This document shows positions 1-59,006 of a stretch of 64,000 nt of DNA, one piece after another. The notes below the pieces were generated by a model, which did not search any database, was not told the DNA's origin, and worked only from the letters and a program-made list of their open reading frames with translations. Numbering within the stretch: position 1 is the first letter of the stretch; every line of letters begins with the position of its first letter. Source of the DNA: Candidatus Nomurabacteria bacterium (lineage in GTDB: Bacteria; Patescibacteriota; Minisyncoccia; Phycocordibacterales; UBA9973); assembly GCA_963832025.1 (NCBI GenBank), contig CAWHSF010000003.1, positions 79,665-143,664 on the forward strand, given 5' to 3'. Both the position numbers and the translations under genes were made by a program.

Positions 1-234
1 TCACTGACGAGTCAGAATTCAACCGAAATCGAATCCTTCAACCTCTCCCATCTATGCTACGCAGACAAAAAACATGCTCAATATCAAGTTATAGTAAAGC
101 TTCTAGGGTCTTTTCGTCTAACTGCAGGTAACCGGCATCTTCACCGGTATTGTATTTTCACCGAGCTGGTCCCCGAGACAGTTCTCCAGTCATTACACCA
201 TTCGTGCGCGTCGGAACTTACCCGACAAGGATTG

Positions 235-273
<39 letters not shown>

Positions 274-1163
274 AGGGCTTATATCAGTCACCATATAATA
301 TTGCTACCATACAACGTCGATATTTGACCTTCTGGCATTGGTCAGGTGTCACCCCCTATACATCCTCTTGCGAGTTCGCAGGGAGCTGTGTTTTTGGTAA
401 ACAGTTGCCAGAGATACTTTCGCTGCGGCCCCTCGACTCGGTGCTAAGCACCTCGCTCGGACCTTCGGCCCAAAACATTTTTCAATATTTCTAGGCTGAA
501 AGTCCTGAGAGAGATACGCATATCAATCGAAGGGCAAGCCTTATCCCGAAGTTACGGCTGCTTTTTTGCCGAGTTCCTTGGGGACCACTCACTCGTTCGT
601 CTTGGTCTACTCGACCTGATCACCTGTGTCGGTTTGCGGTACGGATTCTATATTTATAAGTTTAGAGAGTTTTCTTGGAAGCGTGCTTTGTATCATTATC
701 CTCTGCCGAAGCGAAAACTTTTTGCTTCTCTTTCATGCGCCATTTAAGGCACTCTACGGATTTTCCTATAGAGCATCAATCAAGACACAAACTCAAATCC
801 AATAATGAGCGATACATACTACACTCCGTCACTCCCGTCACTAAATACAGAAGTCAGGGAATATTAACCCTGTGTCCATCGGGTGCGGCTTTCGCCATTC
901 CCTTAGGCCCGACTAACCCTTGGCTGATAGACATTGCCAAGGAAACCTTGATCTTTCGACGTGGGGGTTCTCACCCCATTGCGGTTACTTGTGCCAACAT
1001 TCTTACTTCCACACGCTCCAGAAGCTCTCACGGTCTTCCTTCACAGCAGAGTGGAACACTCTCCTACCACTCGTAGACTTCATCAAGAAGCCAAGCAACT
1101 ATTCTTGATTAGAAATAATTGCTTAGCAATGTAAATATTTTATACTCTCTCACTTGAGAGAGC

Positions 1164-1280
1164 TGGCGGGGATGGTGGGACTCGAACCCACGATCTCCAA
1201 GTTTGAATACATGGCCTTTACTTATGATACCAGCCACTTCTTCTCCACTGGCGCTCTAACCAACTAAGCCACAACCCCGC
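1164..1280 (-). tRNA. tRNA-like unit with ~40-nt expansion in the anticodon-arm region; anticodon not assignable
   Basis: Minus strand: acceptor GGGGTTG/CATCCCC (one T-T mismatch), D arm GCTT-AGTTGGTTA-GAGC, T arm GTGGG-TTCGAGT-CCCAC, 3' GCCA. About 115 nt instead of 76. Confidence 0.35.
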
Positions 1281-1319
1281 GTTTTCTGCGAACAAAGACT
1301 TTAATTTAGATTTAAGAAT

Positions 1320-1420
1320 TGGTCGGACCTGGGCAGATTGAACTGCCACTCCCTGAAGTTTACGGGTTAGCACTTCATGGCATAGGAACGCTCTTTCCAA
1401 CTACCCAAGAGCCAGGTCCG
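1320..1420 (-). tRNA. tRNA-like unit with ~25-nt expansion in the anticodon-arm region; possible GCC anticodon in a non-canonical context
   Basis: Minus strand: 7-8 bp acceptor (C)GGACCTG/CAGGTCC(G) followed by ACCA, D arm CTCTT...AAGAG, T arm GGCAG-TTCAAT-CTGCC (6-nt loop). Internal 6-bp hairpin TGAAGT/ACTTCA. 101 nt. Confidence 0.35.
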
Positions 1421-1450
1421 TAAAACTTTAAATCTAAATTCCAATTGGAT

Positions 1451-1524
1451 TGGCGTTCCAGGGATTCGAACCCTGATATTCGGCTCCAGAGGCCGGTGTC
1501 CTGCCGTTGAACGAGGCGAACGCT
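1451..1524 (-). tRNA. tRNA, anticodon loop CUCUGGA (CUG, Gln by position), atypical D arm
   Basis: Minus strand, 74 nt: acceptor AGCGTTC/GAACGCC (A1-C72 mismatch), anticodon stem CGGC/GCCG, variable ATAT, perfect T arm CAGGG-TTCGAAT-CCCTG. Confidence 0.55.
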
Positions 1525-2332
1525 TTTGAAGTTGAAAAAGTTACTATGCTTGTTTTCACCAGCACACTAATTTCTCAACTCCTTCCAATTTTTTACTAAA
1601 ACAAAGAACAATTTTTTCTTGATGAAGTCTACGAATCCTCAAATTCGGTAATATACTTAGCCCCAATTATTTTCGGCGCAAAATCTCTAGATGAGTGAGC
1701 TGTTACGCTATCTTTAAAGGATGGCTGCTTCTAAGCCAACCTCCTCATTGTTAAAGAAATCTCACCTTCTTGTCTTACACTTAGTATATATTTAGGGACC
1801 TTAAATGAGATCCGGGCTGTTTCCCTTTTGACCAATGGAGCTTAGCCCCCACGGCCTAACTGCCGAGCTATGGTCTCTGGTATTCGGAGTTTGATAGGTT
1901 TCGCGAGATTTCTCCCTGTCGAGACCTTCCAGTGCTCTACCCCCAGAGGAAACACTCGACGCTAGCCCAAAAGCTATTTCGGAGAGAACCAGCTATTACC
2001 AGGTTCGATTAGCTTTTCACTCCTTACCACAAGTCATCGGAAGACGTTGTACGATCTACCCGTTCGGACCTCCACAGATCTTTCGACCTACTTCATCCTG
2101 CTCATGGCAAGCTCACCTGGCTTCGGGTCTTATGCATGCTACTATCAATTAAGATAGCGCGCTATTAACACTCGGTTTCCCTTTGGTTCTGTGGTTTTAG
2201 TCCACTTACCAGCAGCATGAATAAACTCGTTGGCTCATTCTTCAATAGGCACGCTGTCGCAGATCCGAAGACCTGCTTCAACTCCTTGTAGACATATGGT
2301 TTCAGGTCTATTTCACCGCCCTAATCGGGCTG

Positions 2333-2369
<37 letters not shown>

Positions 2370-3000
2370 ATCTTTAAGAATATTTAGTCTTAGCGGTTAG
2401 TTCCGGCTGGATTCCCCCGGCCATTCATGTCCTGGGGTACTCAAGAATAACAATAAAAGAGATAAGAAATTTTCGCTTACAGGACTATCACCCTCTATGG
2501 TGTTGCTTTCCAGCAACTTAAGCTAATAACTTATTTTTTAACTCCTCTTTAAATAAATAAAACATTGTCTACCTTACAACCCCCATCGTATTGCTACTGA
2601 CGGTTTGGGCTCCTTCCTTTTCGCTCGCCGCTACTAAGGAAATGCATATTTGTTTCTTTTCCTCCTGGTACTGAGATGTTTCACTTCCCAGGGTGCGCTC
2701 TTTTATCATAAAGATAAAAATTATCAAGGTTTACTTGATAGGGTTTCCCCATTCGGAAATCTCCGGATCAAAGGTTGCTAAGCACCTCCCCGAAGCTTAT
2801 CGCAGCAACGCCACGTCCTTCATCGCTTCTTAAAGTCAAGGCATCCACCGTACGCCCTTAAATTTCCTGTTAGGAAATTTGAAAACCACATCCCGACTTT
2901 ACGCCGGGAAAAAACAAAGCTAGACTCAAACTTTTTTCACGACCGCTCGTTACTAAAATATTTGCCTTAGCTTTTTTCTGTCTGGGCTAAAAGACCCATC

Positions 3001-3178: not shown

Positions 3179-3310
3179 GTCAACCCGGTAGTAGAGCTTT
3201 GCGATGTGTATAACACATTCCGACCTTTTGCTCGGAATATCGCAAAGTCTCACTACCGGGTCAACCTTGTAAACAAAACTAAAAAAGCACCTCTTTTGAG
3301 GTGCTTTTTT
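3179..3310 (+). ncRNA. candidate small structured RNA (~130 nt), family unknown
   Basis: Perfect TATAAT at 3167-3172. Outer stem acccggtag/ctaccgggt (3183-3191/3253-3261) and ctttgcgat/atcgcaaag (3197-3205/3239-3247) encloses hairpins atgtgtataacacat and attccga...tcggaat. Ends in an intrinsic terminator at 3286-3310. No ORF. Confidence 0.35.
3281..3310. terminator. bidirectional intrinsic terminator
   Basis: aaaaaagcacctc-tttt-gaggtgctttttt; A-run and T-run flank an 8-bp GC-rich stem. Sits directly downstream of the minus-strand CDS ending at 3331. Confidence 0.6.
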
Positions 3311-4134: not shown

Positions 4135-4200
4135 GCAGTTTCTAGACCTTTTTTAAGGCTTGTGTGGATAACTTCTTGCGTTAGGTCTTGCCTAACGCAG
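4135..4200. repeat. 38-nt unit (gcagtttctagaccttttttaaggcttgtgtggataac, 4135-4172) plus REP hairpin tgcgttagg-tcttg-cctaacgca (4177-4199)
   Basis: The 38-mer recurs exactly at 5971-6008 and the hairpin recurs at 5951-5973. The hairpin overlaps the RAYT stop codon. Confidence 0.9.
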
Positions 4201-4851
4201 AGCTAACCAATCAAAAATCTCTTCAATAAATGAGGATTTGTTGGGAAAGTATTTCGGAAATTCTTCTATATTTAAAATCTTGCTCTGAATTCTTTTTTCT
4301 CCAACAAAATCTAGATAGCTTGAGTAGGTATATTTATTTAAATAATTGATGGCTTCTTTTTTGTTTTTAATCCCCCTTTCTTTCCAATCTCTCTGAATAA
4401 GTTTTATTGGGTTTAAATGTATATAAGAAAATAAATATTTCAGATGCTGATCTATGCTTGTATGCTGAGATTTAAATTTACCTTCAAATAATCCACCTGT
4501 TCTTTTATATTTTTTATTGTAATACATTGAATAAGCAGTGCTCAATTTTTGCATAAATTTACTTATTCCACCTTCAACTTTTTCAGTGATTAGTATATGA
4601 AAATGATTTGGCATAATACAATATGCTCCAATACCAACTAGAAGATTTTTTCTCTCTAGCTCATAAACATTAAAATTGATATCTCTATTTAAATCGTAAA
4701 AATTAAAACTTTGATTTGAGTTTGAAACATAGAGTAAGGAAATAAATCTTAAATAATCTCCCTTATCGTGAAAAATTTTCTGTTTACTATTTCCACGATT
4801 ATAGAGGTGATAATACTCACCTTGAGCAAAATTAGTTTCTCTAAAAGACAT
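4192..4851 (-). CDS. rayT: REP-associated tyrosine transposase (RAYT; IS200/IS605 Y1 HUH family)
   Basis: YHLYNRG N-terminal block, HUH motif PNHFHIL, GGLFEGKFKS block, catalytic-Tyr block YIHLNP. Flanked by oppositely oriented REP hairpins. Confidence 0.8.
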   Translation of the reverse strand: MSFRETNFAQGEYYHLYNRGNSKQKIFHDKGDYLRFISLLYVSNSNQSFNFYDLNRDINFNVYELERKNLLVGIGAYCIMPNHFHILITEKVEGGISKFMQKLSTAYSMYYNKKYKRTGGLFEGKFKSQHTSIDQHLKYLFSYIHLNPIKLIQRDWKERGIKNKKEAINYLNKYTYSSYLDFVGEKRIQSKILNIEEFPKYFPNKSSFIEEIFDWLALR

Positions 4852-4872
4852 ATAAATATACTATCAAACATT

Positions 4873-4900
4873 CTCTGCGTTAGGCAAGGCCTAACGCAAG
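4873..4900. repeat. REP hairpin tgcgttagg-caagg-cctaacgca, inverted relative to copies at 4177 and 5951
   Basis: Same 9-bp stem as the 4177-4199 copy; the loop is nearly its reverse complement. Confidence 0.85.
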
Positions 4901-4908
4901 TAAATATT

Positions 4909-5950: not shown

Positions 5951-6016
5951 TGCGTTAGGTCTTGCCTAACGCAGTTTCTAGACCTTTTTTAAGGCTTGTG
6001 TGGATAACCCCCACAC
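5951..6016. repeat. REP hairpin (5951-5973), second copy of the 38-nt unit (5971-6008), then CCCCCACAC-family arm
   Basis: Exact repeat of 4135-4172. gtgtggataacccccacac is itself a hairpin. ccccacacttattgcaaag (6008-6030) pairs with ctttgcgataagtgtggggg (6057-6079). Confidence 0.9.
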
Positions 6017-9687: not shown

Positions 9688-11454
9688 TCAGTGCTGATAA
9701 AATCCTCTCGCTTCAGAGTCTGGAAGCATGATTAGATTCACGTTTTTTGCTTTGCAAAGTTCAATAACCTTTTCGTCATTCACTGAACCACTTGTAGAAA
9801 AAATAGTTTTGATTCCGCGATTAATCAAAACTTCCGGCGCGTCGGGAAAAGGAAAAAAACTATCGCTGTAAGCAACAGCGTTTTCTAGGTCTGCTGTTTC
9901 TTCAAGAGGCAGAAGCAAATTTTTCAGCTTTCCTCCATCCTCCGGATGGACCCTTCCGCTAGAAAAATTTGCTTCTGCCTCTTTTCGAAATTTAGCTGCA
10001 TCATCTGCACGAAAAATAGCAAGCTTGGCGGCGCCGACACGATCTTGCTGTCCGACACCGTTTCCATATAGCCTACCTTCTTTGACGATAGTTATCGTGT
10101 TACTATTTGAGGTGCATCCAATGGCCCAAGCTAAAATAACGTCTTTCAAGATATTCTCAGGCACACCCGCCGTCGCTAAAGCTATGTCGGGTAAGAAAGT
10201 ATAGTTTGGCTGGGTTAAAAATCCGCCCCGCACATAACGAATTCTGGAAGTTAAGTCCAAGGAAGACAATCCTGCTTTTTCAATTACCGGATTTACCAAA
10301 ATTCTACACTTTCCTTTTTTGCGAGACAAAATTTCCACAGCTTCGGCAGAAAATGAAGGTGCGGCGACAATGTCTAGTAAACGTCTCCCCTCACCTGCAT
10401 ATTTATGGATAAGTTCTTCCGCAATTTTTTCGTCAACATTAAAATTCAACATAACTGAACCACCGAAAATTGCGCGCAAATCACCCAAGAGCATTCTATC
10501 TATTGCTAGAGTCGCCTCGGCTGTGTGTTTTTCTGAAGGAGTGGCTGAGCGGAGCGAGGTACCGAGCGACTGAGGAAAAACATCAGCCGAGGCGACCCCC
10601 ACTCCGCAAGCGTTCCCATGTTTGGCGCCGATAGCAACATGTGGAACTTTCGCAAAATTCTTCTCAAAACCAGCACCAACGTGCGTCATCGTTTGCATCA
10701 TTCGGTCTATATCACAAATATTGTTGTAAGAAAGCGGACTGCCAGCCACGAGTTGCCAGTTATGAATTGCCAAAGGGTCATTTTTTATATTTAAATTTTC
10801 GTAAAGACTCGCTGGTTTTTGATAAGCATTTTCTCCGTAGGCGCATTCTAATTTTTTCTGACCCAAAACACCACGATATTCTCCACCACTATGATACTTA
10901 CCAGAAAGCAAACAATATCTTGAGACAATTATTTCCGCTTTGGCGGCTAAATTATTTAAAAATTCTTCGCGATCGGGTTCACCATTTTTTAGCCATTCAA
11001 TCACTTTCGTTCTATCTGCCGGATCGCAAATAGTTATACGTCTGCCTTTCGCCGCCGAACGAAGCATTGTCGGACCGCCGATATCTGTTTTTTCTATCAC
11101 TGACTCTCGTGTTGCATTTGGATTTTTCGTTTCTTCTTCTAGTGGATACAAATCACAGCAGACCAAATCAATCCAAGGTATCTTATATTTTTCTAGTTCT
11201 GCTAAATGTTCCGGAGTATCGAGCGCTAAAAGTCCGCCGTGAATTTTCGGATGCAAGGTCACAACCCGATGGCTCAAAACAGCCGGAAAGCCAGTAATCT
11301 CTGCGACATCAGTAACCGGCACTCCAGCTTCGGATAAATATTTTGCGGTACCACCGGAAGAAATTATTTTCCAACCTAAAGTAACTAAATTTTCGGCAAA
11401 TTCTTTTATACCTGTTTTATCATATACGGAAATGAGAGCTATTTTTTGTTTCAT
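9688..11454 (-). CDS. purH: bifunctional AICAR transformylase / IMP cyclohydrolase
   Basis: MGS-like N-terminus KIALISVYDKTGI...SSGGTAKYL, AICARFT blocks DIGGPTMLRSAAKG and HGNACGV. Start taken at the internal Met (MKQKIAL). Confidence 0.9.
   Translation of the reverse strand: MKQKIALISVYDKTGIKEFAENLVTLGWKIISSGGTAKYLSEAGVPVTDVAEITGFPAVLSHRVVTLHPKIHGGLLALDTPEHLAELEKYKIPWIDLVCCDLYPLEEETKNPNATRESVIEKTDIGGPTMLRSAAKGRRITICDPADRTKVIEWLKNGEPDREEFLNNLAAKAEIIVSRYCLLSGKYHSGGEYRGVLGQKKLECAYGENAYQKPASLYENLNIKNDPLAIHNWQLVAGSPLSYNNICDIDRMMQTMTHVGAGFEKNFAKVPHVAIGAKHGNACGVGVASADVFPQSLGTSLRSATPSEKHTAEATLAIDRMLLGDLRAIFGGSVMLNFNVDEKIAEELIHKYAGEGRRLLDIVAAPSFSAEAVEILSRKKGKCRILVNPVIEKAGLSSLDLTSRIRYVRGGFLTQPNYTFLPDIALATAGVPENILKDVILAWAIGCTSNSNTITIVKEGRLYGNGVGQQDRVGAAKLAIFRADDAAKFRKEAEANFSSGRVHPEDGGKLKNLLLPLEETADLENAVAYSDSFFPFPDAPEVLINRGIKTIFSTSGSVNDEKVIELCKAKNVNLIMLPDSEARGFYQH
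10511..10596. repeat. ~86-nt palindromic element inside purH (GTCGCC...GGCGAC family)
   Basis: Perfect 13-bp termini gtcgcctcggctg / cagccgaggcgac. Encodes ~29 extra residues, ASADVFPQSLGTSLRSATPSEKHTAEATL. Confidence 0.75.
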
Positions 11455-11461
11455 AAAAAAT

Positions 11462-11485
11462 AAAAATACCCGTACGGGTATTTTT
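11462..11485. terminator. bidirectional hairpin terminator downstream of rplL
   Basis: aaaaatacccgtacgggtattttt. Confidence 0.5.
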
Positions 11486-11617
11486 ATTTTAGTACTTTCA
11501 GCGTATGAAAGCAATTATTGTTTTATTTCAACTCCACTTTGGCTACACGTAAATTTCTGCTGAAATTTCGCGCAGCCCCGCCTCAGCGCCGTCGCGCTTC
11601 CGGCCGAAAAATTGAAC

Positions 11618-12810: not shown

Positions 12811-12846
12811 CCTGTGGAAAAACCTCCAGACGTTGGACGTCTGGAG
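12811..12846. repeat. GTGGAAAAACC flank plus 23-nt palindrome ctccagacgttggacgtctggag (12824-12846)
   Basis: Core family member, also seen at 17177, 20219, 21729, 22213, 32351 and 35289. Confidence 0.9.
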
Positions 12847-19413: not shown

Positions 19414-20097
19414 TTATACTTCCTGTGACAGCTCTTCTTCCAGCCCCAGAAAAGAAGAAACTTCTTTTCTTTGTTCCCTAATTACAGAGGACACCTTTAG
19501 GCACTCATTCTTGAAGTTATTGTTGGTACCAAAAAAACTGAGCAGGTTCTTCGCTTCTTTTTTGGACACAACATTAAAATCCATGTTTTCGTATTCAGCA
19601 TCACTGGACAAAATCAACTCCCGCTTTTCTTCGGGAATATTGTGAATCATGTGATTGATATTCACATATGGAAAAATTTTCAAAAAATATTTATTGTTTT
19701 TAATTAAGCTTGATTTAAACCTGCCTTGAAACAAAGCGCCATTCCTTTTATGCACCAAATTGAAATATTTCGTATAGCCACCGAGTAATCTTTTTAAAAA
19801 TTCGGAGATGCCTCCATCTACTTCTTGTTTTAAAATAAAATGAAAGTGATTCGGATTGAGACAATAACAAACAACAGCAACTAAGTTCCCTTCCTTGCTT
19901 TTTCTTTTCAAGCGTCGAGAAAATAACTTGTCTCGTGAATTGTCCCTGATACTACCAACCGGATAAATTTTATTGAATTGTTTTATGCTCAAAACAAAAC
20001 GATTGAGGTCCTTCTTATTCATAAAGATATCCCTCTTATCGACTCCTCTGTTGTAAATGTGATAATACTCGTTAGTTACAAGCGGATGTTTTCTCAT
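19414..20097 (-). CDS. rayT: REP-associated tyrosine transposase (RAYT-like, HUH Y1 family), second copy
   Basis: YYHIYNRGV, HUH motif NPNHFHFIL, GALFQGRFKS. Tyr block is degenerate (PYVNINHMIH). Start taken at the internal Met. Confidence 0.7.
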   Translation of the reverse strand: MRKHPLVTNEYYHIYNRGVDKRDIFMNKKDLNRFVLSIKQFNKIYPVGSIRDNSRDKLFSRRLKRKSKEGNLVAVVCYCLNPNHFHFILKQEVDGGISEFLKRLLGGYTKYFNLVHKRNGALFQGRFKSSLIKNNKYFLKIFPYVNINHMIHNIPEEKRELILSSDAEYENMDFNVVSKKEAKNLLSFFGTNNNFKNECLKVSSVIREQRKEVSSFLGLEEELSQEV

Positions 20098-20206
20098 AAA
20101 ATAATAAAAAATTTCTAGAGGAACGCGACCAGAAATTAAAAACAATTTATAAAAACTAAGCTTAATTAAGCTATTTAGTAATCATAGCGAAAAACTTCAT
20201 GAAGTC

Positions 20207-20266
20207 ATGTGGATAACCCTCCAGACGTTGGACGTCTGTAAGCTTACAGACGTCCAACGTCTGGAG
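20207..20266. repeat. catgtggataacc flank plus perfect 48-nt palindrome (20219-20266)
   Basis: ctccagacgttggacgtctgtaag|cttacagacgtccaacgtctggag. An identical copy sits at 35289-35336. Confidence 0.95.
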
Positions 20267-27637: not shown

Positions 27638-27671
27638 GGGACAAGAAAAAAGCAAGGGAATTTTAAGAGAC

Positions 27672-27743
27672 GTTGCTAAAATTTTTTCCTCCTGCACCCT
27701 CCCCTTCGGGGTGGGAACCTCGGAGATAAAAAATTTTAGCAAC
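27672..27743. repeat. 72-nt hairpin: ~21-bp AT-rich stem capped by a GC-rich tetraloop hairpin
   Basis: gttgctaaaattttttcctcc / ggagataaaaaattttagcaac with core caccctcccc-ttcg-gggtggg. Confidence 0.7.
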
Positions 27744-27797
27744 TTCTCTTTTTTAACTTTTATTCTAATTTAAAGAATTGTGTTAAAATATTCCTAT

Positions 27798-30030: not shown

Positions 30031-30402
30031 ATGAATACCAATGCAAAAAAAATAGTAAAAATAGGAGGTATGACTATTTTTTTTCTGGTAATTATACTTT
30101 ACGCTTTTTTTCGCTCAAGGGATTTGATTTTCGGAGTACAAGTCATGAATGTAGACATAAATGGAGCACCAATACAATCAGGAGCCACTATCACCGACAA
30201 CACAGTAGAGATAACCGGTGTCGCGAGAAATGCAATAGATTTAACCTTGGATGGCCGAGCAATATCGGTGAACCAAGCCGGAAATTTTGATGAGACAATT
30301 GCGCTTCTGCCGGGTTATAATATAATCAATATTAGAGCAAAAGATAAGTTTGGACATGTGGATGAAAAAAATTATCAATTAATGCATGTTGTAGGGCAGT
30401 AG
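30031..30402 (+). CDS. membrane-anchored hypothetical protein with Ig-like fold (123 aa)
   Basis: Start at MNTNAKKIVKIGGMTIFFLVIILYAF (TM helix); the longer ORF-track start overlaps ftsK. Confidence 0.55.
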   Translation: MNTNAKKIVKIGGMTIFFLVIILYAFFRSRDLIFGVQVMNVDINGAPIQSGATITDNTVEITGVARNAIDLTLDGRAISVNQAGNFDETIALLPGYNIINIRAKDKFGHVDEKNYQLMHVVGQ

Positions 30403-30479
30403 TTACTTTTATTCAGGTCCTCGGTCCTCCGGGGCCCCACACCCCGGCCAGACCATTCATAAAAGCAACTACTACCCTA
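30392..30479. repeat. ~88-nt imperfect hairpin: 28-nt AT-rich arms, GC-rich core ccgggg-ccccaca-ccccgg
   Basis: tagggcagtagttacttttattcaggtc / gaccattcataaaagcaactactacccta. Overlaps the stop codon at 30400-30402. Confidence 0.7.
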
Positions 30480-30489
30480 TAACTAAATA

Positions 30490-46134: not shown

Positions 46135-49100
46135 TTATATTTTCTCAATCTTTACCTTGAAAAGCAAATCGTCGATTTTGATTTCTTCGCCATCTGTCGG
46201 TCCATCTGGGCCAACTTTTATTTCGCGAGCATTCAAAGCCTTCATTAATGATTTTTCATCACTTTTTATTAAATTCTCACCAGCAGGACCAGTCGCACCA
46301 CTAATAATAATGATATCACTTGGTATAAGATTTTTTTCTTTCCTTATATCTTGAAGTGCACGTATAAATTCACGACGATTTCCTTCTAATTTAAGTTCTG
46401 GCGTCATATTTGTGTTTAATGTATAAAATCCTGTACCTGTATAATTTTTTACATTTATTTCTTCTTTGATAATTTCAGCATAACTACCTAAGACTGCTGG
46501 TCCCGTCGCTTCAGAGAGAACTTGTCGAACTGGAATATTTTTTTGCTGTCTTTCTTTGAGCAAAATGGAAACACTATCCCTTGCTTGCGCCATTTTTTCA
46601 ATCGCTTCTCTATCAACTTTCTCCGCTTTAGGCCAATTTTCTAAATGCACGCTTTCTTTATTTTTTTCATTTTTTAATTTCAACCAGATGTCTTCTGCAG
46701 AAAATGGAGCAAATGGAGCCATAACTTTTGCCAGAGTTTTTAACACAAAGTATAGAGTTTGCTTCGCCTCTTTGTCTCCTTCTTTAATTCTTTCTCGAGA
46801 GCGCCGTAAATACCAGGTGGATAGGTCTCCAACAAAATCACGAATCGCACGTGTGGGTTCAAGTAATTTATACTCATTTAAATTATCAGTAGAAAGTTTT
46901 ACTAATTCATTCAATCTAGCCAAAATCCACTGGTCTAGAATATTTGACTTCTCCCCCGACCCCTCTCCAAAAAGTTTTTTGGAGAGGGGTGAAGGGGTGA
47001 GGTGGGTTTCTTCTAAACTTTTATCTCGATAAAGTTCGTAAAATGCCAAAACATTGTAAAGTAATCCAAAAACTTGCTGGTGTAAAAGAGAAACAGTTTT
47101 CTCATCGAAGTTTTTAGATTCTCCCGGCTGATTGACGGAATACATCCACAAACGAAGCGTATCCACGCCATATTTATCCATTGCACTCCACGGATCCACA
47201 ATATTGCCGAGTGATTTGGACATTTTCTTGCCTTTGGCATCAAGCAGGTGCCCAAGACAAATCACGTTTTTATAGGCCAATCCCCGCCCCATCAAAACTC
47301 CAACGGCGTGTAAGGTATAAAACCATCCTCTGGTCTGATCTATCGCTTCAGAAATAAAATCTGCCGGATATCCCGCTCCATCCACCCATTTTTTGTTTTC
47401 AAAGGGGTAATGGTCTTGCGCAAAGGGCATGGCGCCAGAATCGAGCCAAACATCCATGACTTCTTTGGTGCGTACAAGATTTCCTCCGCATTCACAAACA
47501 AGCTTTACTTCGTCAATGTATGGCCGATGCAAATCAAGCTCATAATTTTCGTTGTGAGGAATTGGGATAAAATCTATCTTGTGAAGTTCTGCAGTTTTGT
47601 CGTGACATTCTTTATCAAAAATTTCTTCTGAGCGTTTTTTATTTGCTCCTTCGACAACGGCTGGAGCAACTTCGAGTGAAAAACCATGAGATACAATTAG
47701 AATATTTTCATTTTTATACTTTTCTTCGAGTTCATATAAAAACTTTCCGATTCGATTCTTGGCATCTTGGAAGCTTTCACCTTCTGGATTTTTTACATCA
47801 AAATCCCAACCATTTTCTGTCATGTAGTTGTTGTATTCACTACCGTGTTTGCCAGAAAAATTTCCAAATCCGAATTCACGAAGTTCATCTCGAAAAATTA
47901 TTTCATCTTTAGGGAAGCCTATCTTGTCAGAAATAATTTCAGCTGTTTCTTTGGTCCGAAGAAGTGGTGAAGCAAAAATCATTGCTATTTTTTTGCTGGA
48001 AAGTTCTTTCGCGTGCTTTTCTGTTTCCAAGCGCCCTTTGACAGTAAGAGGATAGACGCCCAATTCATCTGAATAAATATTTATTACATTGTTTTCTGCT
48101 TCGCCATGTCGCATGACAAAATATTTATTGCCAGATTTCTTGGTTTTTTGCTTCAGTTCTTCCACACTCCCGACAACTTCAAGCTTTTTACATTTTTCAC
48201 AAGCCCAAACCGGAAGCGGAGTGCCCCAGTATCGTTCGCGTGAGATTGCCCAATCTTTTATCTCGCGAAGCCATTCGCCAAAACGCCCATCGCGGATATG
48301 TGAAGGTTCCCAATTTATTTTTTTATTCTCGGCAATCATTTTTTCCTTGATTTTCGGATCGGAAACTTTGATATACCAAGAATCTCGTGCGTAATAAATA
48401 AGCGCGGTGTGGCAACGCCAACAATGCGGATAGGAGTGTTCATATTTTTCTTTTTTAAACAAAAGTCCGCGGTGCGCCAAATCTTTGATGACATCCACCG
48501 CCACTTCTTCGTCGCGAACAAATCTGCCTTCAAATATTCCGGTCCCTGCCAAAAATTTTCCATCCAGGCCAACCAAATGATGTTTTGGCAAACCAACCTT
48601 TGTTCCCAACACAAAATCATCTTGTCCATACATCACTGCCGTATGCACCACGCCGGTACCGTCTTCGGTCGTGACAAAATCTGCCGGATAAACTTTGTAA
48701 GCCTTTTCCATTTTATGCTTCTCGGTTTCAAAAATCGTGTTTGAGAGAAATGGGTAAAGCGGTTCGTATTCCAGGCCAATCAAATCTTTGCCTTTCATTT
48801 CTTCTATAATTTCATATTCGCCTTCAACTATAGAAAGTCGTGCCTTGGCTAAAATTAAAATTTCATTTCCAACTTTAATTTTTACGTAATCAAGTTTTTC
48901 TCCCACAGCCAGCGCCACATTGCCCGGCAGAGTCCAAGGAGTTGTCGTCCATGCGAGAACATAGGTGTCGTCAGTCGCCGCAGAAGAATTCTTCGGCATT
49001 ACTCCACCCTCTGGGCGGAACCTTCCGCCTTCAGAATTCTTCTGCGGCGACGCGACGACTTTAAATTTTACGGTCACCGACAAATCTTTCACATCTTCAT

Positions 49101-49695
49101 ATCCTTGCGCAAGTTCGTGCGAAGAAAGAGAAGTTCCGCATCTTGGGCACCAAGGCACAACTTTATAATCTTTATAAAGTAATTTCTGTTCATTTATTTT
49201 TTTTACAATATTCCAGACCGATTCAATGTAGCTATTATGATAAGTGACATATGCGTTTTTTTGGTCTACCCAATATCCAATACGCTTAGTAAATTTATTC
49301 CAAACTTCCAGATATTCCCAGACAGATTCTTTACATTCTTGGTTGAATTTCGCAATACCGTATTCTTCAATTCCCTTTTTTGAATTCAAGCCAAGTTTTT
49401 TCTCCACCTGAAGCTCTACCGGCAACCCTTGCGTATCCCATCCACCTTTTCTACGCACATGAAAACCCTGCATCGTTTTATATCGCGGAATCACATCCTT
49501 AAATGCTCGCGCTTCTAAATGGTGTATTCCTGGCTTGCCATTTGCTGTTGGCGGACCTTCGTAAAAAATAAATTCTTTTTCCCCTTCCGTTTGCTTTAGA
49601 GATTTATCGAAAATTTTATTCTCTTTCCAAAATTCCAAAATGCGTTCCTCGCGCAAAGCAGTCTCACTTTTTTTGTTTTCTAGATTTTCAGCCAT
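46135..49695 (-). CDS. ileS: isoleucine--tRNA ligase with an inserted histidine-phosphatase domain and two palindromic-element inserts
   Basis: PTANGKPGIHH, editing-domain WTTTPWTLPGN, KMSKSLGN, Zn-type CxxC pairs. 1186 aa. Confidence 0.9.
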   Translation of the reverse strand: MAENLENKKSETALREERILEFWKENKIFDKSLKQTEGEKEFIFYEGPPTANGKPGIHHLEARAFKDVIPRYKTMQGFHVRRKGGWDTQGLPVELQVEKKLGLNSKKGIEEYGIAKFNQECKESVWEYLEVWNKFTKRIGYWVDQKNAYVTYHNSYIESVWNIVKKINEQKLLYKDYKVVPWCPRCGTSLSSHELAQGYEDVKDLSVTVKFKVVASPQKNSEGGRFRPEGGVMPKNSSAATDDTYVLAWTTTPWTLPGNVALAVGEKLDYVKIKVGNEILILAKARLSIVEGEYEIIEEMKGKDLIGLEYEPLYPFLSNTIFETEKHKMEKAYKVYPADFVTTEDGTGVVHTAVMYGQDDFVLGTKVGLPKHHLVGLDGKFLAGTGIFEGRFVRDEEVAVDVIKDLAHRGLLFKKEKYEHSYPHCWRCHTALIYYARDSWYIKVSDPKIKEKMIAENKKINWEPSHIRDGRFGEWLREIKDWAISRERYWGTPLPVWACEKCKKLEVVGSVEELKQKTKKSGNKYFVMRHGEAENNVINIYSDELGVYPLTVKGRLETEKHAKELSSKKIAMIFASPLLRTKETAEIISDKIGFPKDEIIFRDELREFGFGNFSGKHGSEYNNYMTENGWDFDVKNPEGESFQDAKNRIGKFLYELEEKYKNENILIVSHGFSLEVAPAVVEGANKKRSEEIFDKECHDKTAELHKIDFIPIPHNENYELDLHRPYIDEVKLVCECGGNLVRTKEVMDVWLDSGAMPFAQDHYPFENKKWVDGAGYPADFISEAIDQTRGWFYTLHAVGVLMGRGLAYKNVICLGHLLDAKGKKMSKSLGNIVDPWSAMDKYGVDTLRLWMYSVNQPGESKNFDEKTVSLLHQQVFGLLYNVLAFYELYRDKSLEETHLTPSPLSKKLFGEGSGEKSNILDQWILARLNELVKLSTDNLNEYKLLEPTRAIRDFVGDLSTWYLRRSRERIKEGDKEAKQTLYFVLKTLAKVMAPFAPFSAEDIWLKLKNEKNKESVHLENWPKAEKVDREAIEKMAQARDSVSILLKERQQKNIPVRQVLSEATGPAVLGSYAEIIKEEINVKNYTGTGFYTLNTNMTPELKLEGNRREFIRALQDIRKEKNLIPSDIIIISGATGPAGENLIKSDEKSLMKALNAREIKVGPDGPTDGEEIKIDDLLFKVKIEKI
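46949..47006. repeat. GC-rich palindrome cccctctccaaaaa-gt-tttttggagagggg with flanks, inside ileS
   Basis: Family of 39821-39870. Encodes ...LTPSPLSKKLFGEGSGEKS... Confidence 0.8.
48974..49051. repeat. 78-nt palindromic element with perfect 19-bp termini inside ileS (GTCGCC...GGCGAC family)
   Basis: gtcgccgcagaagaattct (48974-48992) / agaattcttctgcggcgac (49033-49051). Inner hairpin ggcggaa-cc-ttccgcc. Exactly 26 codons. Confidence 0.9.
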
Positions 49696-57212: not shown

Positions 57213-59006
57213 TTAATAAATGTCTTCTATCCTCAATCTTAACTCTTCTCTGCCTCTAAATCTAGATAAGTCAAAAGTTGCAAGCAAATCCACTCTGAGT
57301 CCTAGGGAAAGTTGTTTTTTGAAAGAATCAATGTTGGAGAAAAAAGAAATTGCCGTAGCATTACTCTTGTTGTCATCCGAAAAAGTAATTTCTAAATGCT
57401 CTCCGGAACCATTCTTGCCGAATTTTTTTAATTTTTCTATTTTCACTCCTTCAAAGAGAAAAACTGGCTTTGGATTCCCTAGTCCAAAGGGTTCCATCTT
57501 CTCCAGTTCACGCCAATTTTTCATATTTACAATATTAAGACTAGATTTAATATCGTGATTAACATCTTTTTCTATTTTGTCCCCGCCTACGCGGGCAGGT
57601 CTTTTCACTTTATGAAAAGATTTCGCAAGCGCTTCTTCCAAGAAATGAATTTTATCTTCATGCACCGTAAAACCTCCAGCCAATTCATGTCCACCGAAAT
57701 CTAAGAAGGAATCCTTACTGTCTTCCATGAGTTCCACAATAGAGACTGAACCATCACTACGACAGGAACCTTTAATGCAATTATTTTCATCTTTACCCCA
57801 GACAAAAACTGGTTTTTTGTGTTGGTCGGAAATTTTTCCAGCCACCAAGCCGAGCACCCCCACTCGCCAGCCAGGATTACCGATAACTATTACCTCTTTA
57901 TTTTCTCGCATGGGATCTGCATCAAACTTTTTATTTACCTCACGCATGATTCCCGTAACAATACTTTTTCTTTCATCATTTATTTTTGATAAATGGTCCG
58001 CAAGCACTCCACCCTCTTTCGCATCTACTGTGGAAAGAAGTTCATAAGCTCGCATCGGGTCATCCATTCGGGAGGCAGCATTTAATCTGGGAGTAACCAT
58101 AAAACCAATATCATCGGGCGACAAATATCTTTGGTCAATATTCATTTTGGCAAGAAGTTTTTGTAACCCTGGACGTGGAGATTTTTTCAGAACTTTCATG
58201 CCAAAATATGCGATAGCTCTGTTTTCGCCCGTTAAAGGAACCATATCGGAAAGCGTCGCCAGACCAGCCATGTCCAGCATCCATTTTTCAAAGCCATGAC
58301 TAGGGGCAGAGGGCAGTAAAGTTTTAGCAGCCGAGGACTGTCTGAGCAGAGCGAGTTCCGCAGGCAAGAAAATTTTGCTGTCCTCTACTCCCCCGGCTTC
58401 TTCTATGTATTTTATTAATCCCTGTATCAATTTAAAAACCACGCCAGCACCGCAAAGCATTTTTTCGGGGTAATCATCTGTCTTTGGATTCAAAATTGCA
58501 TAAGCTTTGGGTAATTTTTCTTGAGGCAAGTGGTGGTCTGTAATTATGACATCAATTCCCTCTTTTTTTGCTTGCGCAACTTCTTCTACCGCTGTAATTC
58601 CCAAATCAATTGTAATCAAAAGTTTTACTTTTGATTCTGCAAACTGTTTGACTGCCTCCATATTTAACCCATATCCCTCAGAATTTCTTTGGGGAATGTA
58701 AACCCCCACACCAAAATCTTTGGTGTGGGGGTAAACTTCGACGGGAACACCAATTTTTTTAAAGAAATCACTTAAGATAACTGCCCCCGGAATACCGTCA
58801 CAATCATAGTCCGCATAGATAATTATCTTTTCTTTTGCTGTTATAGCCTCAAATATACGAGAACAAGCCTTTGACATGTCCTTCATTAAAAATGGGTCGT
58901 GAAAATCTCGCTCGTAATTTGGATTTAAAAATATTTCAGCTTGTCCCAAGTCAGTAATCCCTCTTTTTTCTAAAATTGTTCGGAGTAATTCGGCATACTT
59001 TTGCAT
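57213..59006 (-). CDS. recJ: single-stranded-DNA exonuclease RecJ
   Basis: YADYDCDG, ITDHH, DHHA1 block GGHELAGG. Confidence 0.9.
   Translation of the reverse strand: MQKYAELLRTILEKRGITDLGQAEIFLNPNYERDFHDPFLMKDMSKACSRIFEAITAKEKIIIYADYDCDGIPGAVILSDFFKKIGVPVEVYPHTKDFGVGVYIPQRNSEGYGLNMEAVKQFAESKVKLLITIDLGITAVEEVAQAKKEGIDVIITDHHLPQEKLPKAYAILNPKTDDYPEKMLCGAGVVFKLIQGLIKYIEEAGGVEDSKIFLPAELALLRQSSAAKTLLPSAPSHGFEKWMLDMAGLATLSDMVPLTGENRAIAYFGMKVLKKSPRPGLQKLLAKMNIDQRYLSPDDIGFMVTPRLNAASRMDDPMRAYELLSTVDAKEGGVLADHLSKINDERKSIVTGIMREVNKKFDADPMRENKEVIVIGNPGWRVGVLGLVAGKISDQHKKPVFVWGKDENNCIKGSCRSDGSVSIVELMEDSKDSFLDFGGHELAGGFTVHEDKIHFLEEALAKSFHKVKRPARVGGDKIEKDVNHDIKSSLNIVNMKNWRELEKMEPFGLGNPKPVFLFEGVKIEKLKKFGKNGSGEHLEITFSDDNKSNATAISFFSNIDSFKKQLSLGLRVDLLATFDLSRFRGREELRLRIEDIY
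58702..58732. repeat. 31-nt CCCCCACAC-family palindrome inside recJ
   Basis: acccccacaccaaa-atc-tttggtgtgggggt. Encodes ...YPHTKDFGVGVY... between the DYDCDG region and IPQRNSEGYG. Confidence 0.85.

Follow-up and report, generated by a model that had tools for sequence, protein, structure and literature searches.

The essential purine-synthesis gene purH of a Candidatus Nomurabacteria genome, located in the 64,000-nucleotide (nt) stretch of contig CAWHSF010000003.1 analyzed here (hereafter, the window), is interrupted by an 86-nt hairpin that we consider, with a probability of about 80%, to be a translated selfish hairpin repeat resembling repetitive extragenic palindromes (REPs) and Rickettsia palindromic elements (RPEs), a member of a low-copy, GC-rich family of the Paceibacteria tolerated in protein loops. 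The 86-nt segment is an insertion relative to most orthologs, and the family to which it belongs, designated type b, is a repeat at the nucleotide level rather than a protein loop with incidental pairing. The features discussed below are collected in Table 1.

The hairpin repeat in purH and its family

The element comprises perfect 13-bp termini, GTCGCCTCGGCTG (positions 10511-10523) and its reverse complement CAGCCGAGGCGAC (positions 10584-10596), placed exactly where the initial annotation had located the palindrome; the two termini are the only zero-mismatch matches of this pair within the window. The hairpin arms reach 24 nt at 79% complementarity. The RNA fold of the element is computed at -46 kcal/mol versus -27.5 ± 3.3 kcal/mol for shuffled sequences (z -5.65, 0/200), and the DNA folds, one per strand, at -27.3 and -26.3 kcal/mol (z ~ -6). 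The GC content of the element is 0.59, compared to 0.41 for the remaining purH and 0.39 for the window, which bears out its description as a GC-rich segment in an AT-rich gene. The window contains 23 inverted repeats with perfect arms of 13 bp or more separated by no more than 100 nt, versus a mean of 0.23 in 30 dinucleotide shuffles, so palindromes are a property of this genome and not a coincidence. BLAST and nhmmer searches within the window disclose no further type b copy, and Rfam 15, searched at the gathering threshold (window and 12 loci) and at E ≤ 1 (10 loci), yields nothing relevant to the element and no intron or ribozyme model.

The purH open reading frame (ORF) remains open through the element, the peptide of which, VASADVFPQSLGTSLRSATPSEKHTAEAT, directly follows HGNACGVG of the PurH motif KHGNACGVG, confirming the in-frame position first reported. 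The hairpin covers 29 codons, a number originally given as the residues added, but the net gain over orthologs with an empty site is 23 codons. The segment from HGNACG to xML comprises 35 residues here versus 12 in 76 of 120 PurH orthologs from Nomurabacteria/Paceibacteria (66-80% identity), the closest empty-site ortholog reading ..GVGVGDSEIKAVDKML. Carriers of the element amount to four of the 120, including (i) P0001, identical to the window protein, (ii) P0002, (iii) P0040, and (iv) P0046; they are scattered, beside non-carriers, on the PurH neighbor-joining tree, and the nearest relatives, P0003 and P0004 (77%), have an empty site. About one-third of the orthologs hold some insert at this one site. 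The HMMER alignment to the solved bacterial PurH breaks at the site because C. jejuni PurH (4EHI) displays ~13 residues facing the ~36 of query residues 309-344. Eukaryotic ATIC displays a longer but non-homologous segment at this position and the close orthologs display none, which leaves the lineage-specific insertion initially proposed standing. In the AlphaFold2 model of PurH (pLDDT, the per-residue confidence score, 81.7), the insert is predicted to lie between the strand 279-286 and the helix 304-319, with pLDDT values of 59-83 and short helices.

Outside purH, near-identical DNA lies in frame in five further host-gene contexts of related genomes and also between genes, which upholds the suggestion of an RPE-like in-frame insertion. 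The type b copies were disclosed when metagenomes were scanned for a degenerate 22-nt motif drawn from the element, and the figures given refer to the matches listed; the copies share ~60-86 nt with the purH element and reside in related Paceibacteria, within the candidate phyla radiation (CPR). The intergenic copies lie in either orientation relative to the neighboring genes. Among five purH carriers, third-codon-position identity reaches 0.80-0.95 within the element versus 0.42-0.54 across the remaining gene, dropping to background in the bins directly flanking the element, and within it the first, second, and third codon positions do not differ in conservation. Such third-position conservation fits either recent independent arrivals of one sequence or nucleotide constraint, and not a protein loop that has drifted. 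The carriers were also tested for a common recombination tract spanning the element, and none was found. At the protein level, 1.84 billion representatives searched with a profile built from four insert peptides yielded a single true match, a pheT fragment, together with one unrelated repeat protein, and a protein search with a 60-aa concatenation of two insert peptides returned nothing.

Of the six possible reading frames through the element, three lack stops. All six coding sites use a single common one of these, an outcome with a probability of ~(1/3)^5 if the open frames were equally likely, and the coding copies share the peptide AS(A/P)DAF.QSLGPSLRSATPSQKH..SA. The frame kept and the choice of frame together argue for read-through, and against splicing or bypassing, and the element appears to be translated as part of PurH. 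In recJ, the reading of a related core is shifted by one base (LPAELALLRQSSAAK), and in the topA gene of an unrelated contig a related core is read from the opposite strand.

Anatomy of the element and alternative explanations

The structural alignment of 12 type b and three type c copies highlights a set of invariant sub-apical blocks, TTTT, TCAG, CTCGG, TTC, AAAA, and CA, surrounded by outer stems that vary among the copies of both types; in type c, the apical hairpin varies too. The type c copies comprise two in ileS of other genomes and one intergenic copy in the window. The covariance model R1 scores the purH element, a member of its own training set, at 95.8 bits, and the intergenic type c copy at 54.2 bits; since the latter also belongs to the training set, the alignment and not the score is the real evidence for its homology. 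Paired cells amount to 90.8% versus 33-49% with the partner columns slid, compensatory changes occur in 11 of 19 pairs, and double-change cells number 38 versus 10.4 ± 2.6 for shuffled alignments (0/500). Few G-T states changed on one side occur in the stems, a scarcity more readily reconciled with a DNA palindrome whose symmetry is maintained on both strands than with a structure formed by RNA only. 'Empty' hairpins, with the same stems and no core, were sought in the DNA examined and none was found.

The family consensus displays GCCTCGGC at both termini, so that its stem contains a central TC/TC mismatch. In the window copy, GA on the right-hand side makes the outer stem perfect, and even the host codon GTC pairs with GAC. 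Template-switch correction of arms is a known property of quasi-palindromes, and we read the perfect stem of the window copy as an arm-to-arm correction of this type, by which the GTCGCC terminus common to the ileS element would not be a family feature. The GTCGCC...GGCGAC termini that the initial annotation noted in both elements are literally present, but the two elements belong to different families, and GTC/GAC lies outside the type b consensus, GTC being here a host codon; for these reasons the termini were dropped as a shared family signature.

The explanation favored here, a selfish hairpin repeat, can be put together as follows. A copy would have landed in the purH coding sequence just after KHGNACG and would be read through as a part of PurH. 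Copies would spread in a transposition-like manner as single-stranded DNA hairpins, for which an HUH/Y1 transposase similar to the REP-associated tyrosine transposases (RAYTs) would be the most likely engine, because this lineage contains REP-RAYT systems, the REPs of which do enter the same purH sites. The only survivors would be insertions in permissive loops, in a frame giving a Ser/Pro/Gly-rich, stop-free peptide, and template switching between the arms, not selection for a function, would preserve the arms and even improve their complementarity. Host benefit would not be required.

Several observations weigh against this explanation. The copy number is low, with two to three copies per 64-kb window, and the comparison of filled and empty sites in purH and ileS discloses no clear target-site duplication or clean junction. 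The motifs GTAG, CTAC, CGTC, and GACG do not occur in the purH element, and CGTC and GACG are absent from the family consensus too. At the flanks of either RAYT-like gene of the window, R1 finds no type b or type c copies, other hairpin families being located there; conversely, no RAYT homolog is found at the type b loci, and no transposase is tied to the type b family. The evidence for translation consists of frame statistics. Finally, the apical part is strongly conserved, for the related core even between phyla, to a degree that exceeds the expectation for a decaying selfish element and could mean function.

This last point leads to the main rival, a distinctly improbable one, in which the element is a functional nucleic acid under selection, for instance as an mRNA structure acting on translation pace or decay, or as a DNA site to which a conserved host protein binds, with the sub-apical blocks as the recognition site. 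Equal conservation of the three codon positions inside the element, the invariance of CTCGG, TCAG, and TTC.AAAA.CA in both type b and type c despite variable stems and a variable apical hairpin, the strong covariation of the arms, and the near-invariance of a related 32-nt core over contigs with GC contents of 0.28-0.68 (among the matches listed) all speak in its favor. Against a function, most orthologs, the nearest included, do without the element at the site, the host genes and positions are unrelated to one another, the intergenic copies show no fixed orientation, many unrelated hairpin families swap at the same sites, and the few G-T pairs point to DNA palindrome symmetry rather than to RNA-only selection.

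The removal of the element before the protein is completed, by intron-like excision at the hairpin or by translational bypassing, as at the GC-rich 'byp' inserts of Magnusiomyces mitochondria, is very improbable. The six coding sites keep the frame, are free of stops, and agree in their choice among three open frames, as expected only if they are translated, and no Rfam family, ribozyme, or intron model matches. What recommends such a process is the presence of a very stable hairpin within a coding region and the fact that CPR bacteria are known for intervening sequences in rRNA, the 23S gene of the window itself displaying an insertion-like stretch.

Slightly less probable still is an ordinary lineage-specific surface loop of PurH, maintained by protein-level selection, in which the palindrome is incidental. 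An open ORF, the tolerance of other PurH/ATIC enzymes to long segments at the site, and the moderate confidence and short helices given to the segment by the model agree with a loop of this kind, but the recurrence of this DNA in non-coding sequence and in five host-gene contexts unrelated to one another, third positions conserved far above the remaining gene, the reading of the related core in other frames, and 13-bp perfect arms, with a chance of ~0.2 per window, do not. An assembly or amplification artifact, such as a fold-back chimera, is barely credible: multiple-displacement amplification can make palindromes, but the identical protein is recorded from a 430-kb contig, the same site is filled in independent assemblies from different samples and sources, and the flanks are unique and collinear with the orthologs.

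Transposases, other hairpins, and the 32-nt core

The window contains two RAYT-like genes, the scores of which against NF047646 (REP-associated tyrosine transposase) both lie below the NCBIfam curated cut-off. The palindrome next to gene 2 belongs to an intergenic family, CTCCAGACGTTGGACGTCTGTAAG/CTTACAGACGTCCAACGTCTGGAG, with other copies at 12814, 17176, 21717, 22212, 26627, 27071, 32351, and 35288, and members of this family are found in frame in purH of three sister genomes (L013, L006, and L012). The orthologs of gene 2 in L013 and L006 display their own palindrome variant on both sides, and in each case the genome-specific REP variant around the RAYT ortholog also occurs, in frame, within purH of the same genome. 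The shared variant ties REP-RAYT to in-frame insertion in this lineage, and not to type b. Since type b is untagged and flanks neither RAYT-like gene, its mobilization by an HUH transposase would be argued by analogy, and we regard it as possible although rather doubtful. A parent autonomous insertion sequence for type b was not found in ~1.2 Mb of related DNA. CGTC REPs are described as devoid of a dedicated transposase (PMC3733652); because CGTC palindromes flank a RAYT-like gene here, in a REPtron-like arrangement (19414-20266 in the window, 3300-4300 in L013, and 3700-4500 in L006), and that work denies such a transposase, the pairing may be informative.

A DnaA-box-like motif, GTGGATAAC/GTTATCCAC, directly adjoins most REP-type hairpins of the window (4161, 5997, 19364, 20207, 21720, 26520, 32371, and 35340), and in L013 the motif accompanies the palindrome inserted in the reading frame of purH. 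A direct repeat of ~45 nt, GCAGTTTCTAGACCTTTTTTAAGGCTTGTGTGGATAAC (4136-4170 and 5972-6006), brackets RAYT-like gene 1 and a 360-aa ORF without a Pfam match.

Table 1. Hairpin repeats, host genes, and RAYT-like transposase genes in the window (positions) and in related loci (locus names)
Feature	Location	Strand	Description
purH ORF (AICARFT/IMPCHase), host of the element	9688..11514	-	PF02142 and PF01808; likely start Met ~11454
Type b hairpin repeat in purH	10511..10596	-	86 nt; in frame; gene sense strand reads GTCGCCTCGGCTGATGTTTTTCCTCAGTCGCTCGGTACCTCGCTCCGCTCAGCCACTCCTTCAGAAAAACACACAGCCGAGGCGAC
Second purH hairpin, GRF family	9897..9990	-	in frame; 22-bp perfect stem; peptide ..SGRVHPEDGGKLKN..; extra segment compared to solved PurH
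Type c intergenic homolog	30390..30481	+	blocks TTTT..TCAG..CTCGG / TTCA.AAAAG.CA; different apical hairpin
ileS palindrome, GRF family	48974..49051	-	78 nt; 19-bp perfect stem; peptide ..GGRFRPEGGV..; in frame
Further ileS hairpin	46930..47000	-	15-bp perfect stem at 46959-46990; in frame
recJ hairpin with type a core CTGCGGAACTCGCTCTGCTCAGACAGTCCTCG	58303..58395	-	in frame; CTCGCTYYGCTCAGMCASTCCT common with purH element; insertion relative to solved RecJ
Further recJ hairpin, CCCCCACAC type	58702..58732	-	in frame; 11 inserted residues compared to solved RecJ
RAYT-like HUH/Y1 transposase gene 1	4192..4860	-	HFH motif; PF01797 (E 1.6e-9); NF047646 (E 4e-11)
Inverted hairpins GCGTTAGG..CCTAACGC around gene 1	4176-4200 and 4876-4901		
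RAYT-like HUH/Y1 transposase gene 2	19414..20181	-	HFH motif; PF01797 and NF047646; 38 nt from palindrome 20219-20266
Intergenic palindrome family CTCCAGACGTTGGACGTCTGTAAG/CTTACAGACGTCCAACGTCTGGAG (CTCCAGACGTTGGACGTCTG..)	20219..20266	.	contains CGTC; abundant
Type b in purH	several genomes		in frame
Type b in CCA-adding/polyA-polymerase-family enzyme gene	L036, L074		in frame; Pfam-confirmed host
Type b in pheT	L046		in frame; Pfam-confirmed host
Type b in ligA	L055		in frame; Pfam-confirmed host
Second type b copy in L055	end of L055		ORF without assigned identity
Type b in ileS	L122		in frame; Pfam-confirmed host; occupies site held by GRF palindrome in window ileS
Type b intergenic copy	L080/L087/L120 spacer		neighbors are ordinary genes

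The second purH hairpin and the 78-nt ileS palindrome constitute the GRF family, with a core, GACGGAAGGTTCCGCCCAGAGGGTGGAG, and copy-specific outer stems. The model displays pLDDT values of 41-60 across the former, and the latter is missing from the orthologs P0123 and P0124 (80-81% identity). The ileS site accommodates type b, type c, or GRF depending on the genome, with a 7-residue empty state in 49 of 76 readable orthologs. In sister genomes, the purH and ileS sites are also occupied by hairpins of other families, some of them being REPs that flank RAYT-like genes, and all 11 sister-genome purH inserts folded are strong hairpins. The recJ relative of the purH element, also carried by the recJ ortholog of L114, came to light via its hairpin, before sequence similarity.

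Further features of these genes and of the window deserve mention. The IleRS (46135-49695, minus strand) contains a complete His_Phos_1 (PGAM-like) domain inserted at residues 526-685, found also in L122 and in many homologs. An ileS ortholog in L145 (3330-3470) displays an in-frame TAG in place of a conserved Glu (DWAVSR*RYWGTP), with two ORFs called, for which a sequencing error, a pseudogene, or recoding is possible; many IleRS homologs in the databases are labeled 'partial'. Two hairpins of ~80-88 nt with GC-rich tips (27664-27751 and 3183-3261) are non-coding and assigned to none of the families, one of them just upstream of the 23S gene. The 23S rRNA gene (1-2871, minus strand, cut by the window edge) comprises two internal matches to the tRNA covariance model, at 1167-1278 and 1454-1521, with no tRNA called by ARAGORN; the matches probably reflect inserted sequence, which rRNA genes of CPR bacteria commonly contain.

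Most of the metagenome matches are non-CPR. Among the matches listed, a 32-nt core, CTGCGGAACTCGCTTCGCTCAGACAGTCCTCG, is nearly invariant in at least 94 distinct copies across the GC range given above, on more than 100 contigs whose hairpins are otherwise unrelated (loci L023-L142). The core is located at the hairpin tip and the stems differ, as seen in 66 distinct adjacent 8-mers; the first three positions flanking the core are paired in 77-96% of the copies. The copies are mostly intergenic, multi-copy within assemblies and devoid of a strong orientation bias, with a single in-frame case, in a topA gene. Ralstonia megaplasmids contain two to four unannotated copies of a core variant, exemplified by L143 1440-1560 (Ralstonia GMI1000 megaplasmid). 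The minimal loop of the corresponding type a module is AACTCGCTTCGCTCAGACAG, and the complement of the core holds GCGAAGC, a sequence that forms a very stable DNA mini-hairpin; one core variant swaps GCGAAGC for GCCGCAGGC, the mini-hairpin being retained. The core was searched for in Rfam, in E. coli genomes, and, as the literal sequence, in the literature, with no occurrence found in any of them; viral contigs gave one match and phage records gave partial matches only. The viral, phage, and E. coli results argue that the core is neither phage-borne nor derived from a universal RNA gene. The genes between paired type a copies are ordinary, with no transposases among them.

The link between the core and the purH element comprises 20 of 22 shared bases, an intermediate copy in L055, and similar T-rich/A-rich inner stems in the CPR recJ copy. 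Since the scan pattern was designed from both sequences, the homology of the purH element to the core is plausible, not proven. A speculative and rather unlikely extension is that modular hairpin repeats form a much wider superfamily, so far undescribed, of which the purH element would be the branch found in CPR, with a short apical module that would move between phyla and stems that differ per genome. Modules would nest into existing hairpins or replace their tips. Such nesting would explain (i) the serial occupation of the purH and ileS sites by types b and c, GRF, and REP, (ii) the sharing of stems but not of tips between types b and c, and (iii) the near-invariant core with variable stems. 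A cross-phylum 32-nt module, if true, would imply an unrecognized recognition signal or mobility mechanism.

Significance and comparison with known systems

CPR/Patescibacteria genomes are seen as streamlined, yet PurH, IleRS, PheT, LigA, RecJ, and the CCA enzyme appear to carry translated hairpin repeats. For annotation and phylogenomics, recurrent non-homologous inserts inflate alignments; for protein evolution, they provide a natural, repeated loop-insertion experiment in essential enzymes; and for mobile-element biology, genome-specific REPs at RAYT-like genes are linked to in-frame insertions. A literature search for in-frame palindromic elements or REP/RAYT in CPR/Patescibacteria found no description, consistent with the first remark that the phenomenon was not known to be described for CPR-like genomes.

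The closest parallel is provided by the RPEs, in-frame palindromic repeats of Rickettsia (Ogata et al. 2000, 2002, as summarized in PMC10969869 and PMC3733652), together with the GTAG and CGTC REPs located inside replication and repair genes of Opitutus, Thauera, Rickettsia, and others (Di Nocera et al.; PMC10969869; PMC3733652). The purH element resembles the RPEs in that palindromic repeats occur between genes and in frame in unrelated housekeeping genes, with a conserved family peptide in one phase, no linked transposase, a small genome, and sites compatible with the protein fold. By the described features it is set apart from them: the family measures ~70-86 nt compared to ~100-150 bp for RPEs, it resides in the Patescibacteria/CPR phylum, it lacks the CGTC terminus reported for RPEs (PMC3733652), and its most conserved part is apical and sub-apical whereas the outer stems vary between copies.

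With the REP/RAYT systems, including REPtrons and REPINs (PMC3733652), the element shares the hairpin repeat itself, the presence in the genome of RAYT-like HUH genes with flanking hairpins, and the in-frame occurrence of REPs of those systems in purH of sister genomes. In contrast, the purH element is untagged, longer (81-86 nt) than a REP unit (20-40 bp), and low in copy number, and its family does not flank RAYT genes. Miniature inverted-repeat transposable elements such as ERIC, Correia/NEMIS, and BOX (PMC10969869) are likewise small and non-autonomous, with terminal inverted repeats and sometimes in-frame fusions. The purH element differs from them in forming a single hairpin throughout instead of a pair of inverted repeats enclosing unrelated DNA; no clear target-site duplication and no parent insertion sequence were found in the sites and related DNA compared. 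Yeast mitochondrial GC clusters, including those inside var1, are GC-rich, palindromic, and mobile-looking elements of an AT-rich compact genome that are sometimes translated. They resemble the purH element in their insertion into coding sequence and in the repeated use of hot spots, and differ in being organellar and unrelated in sequence, with a proposed spread by gene conversion. The purH element works like the RPEs and the intragenic REPs and, by the features tested, is a member neither of the RPEs nor of the tagged REPs; both its family and the phylum that hosts it are additions to this known kind of element, and its architecture, in which conserved sub-apical and apical blocks are combined with variable stems, is unusual.

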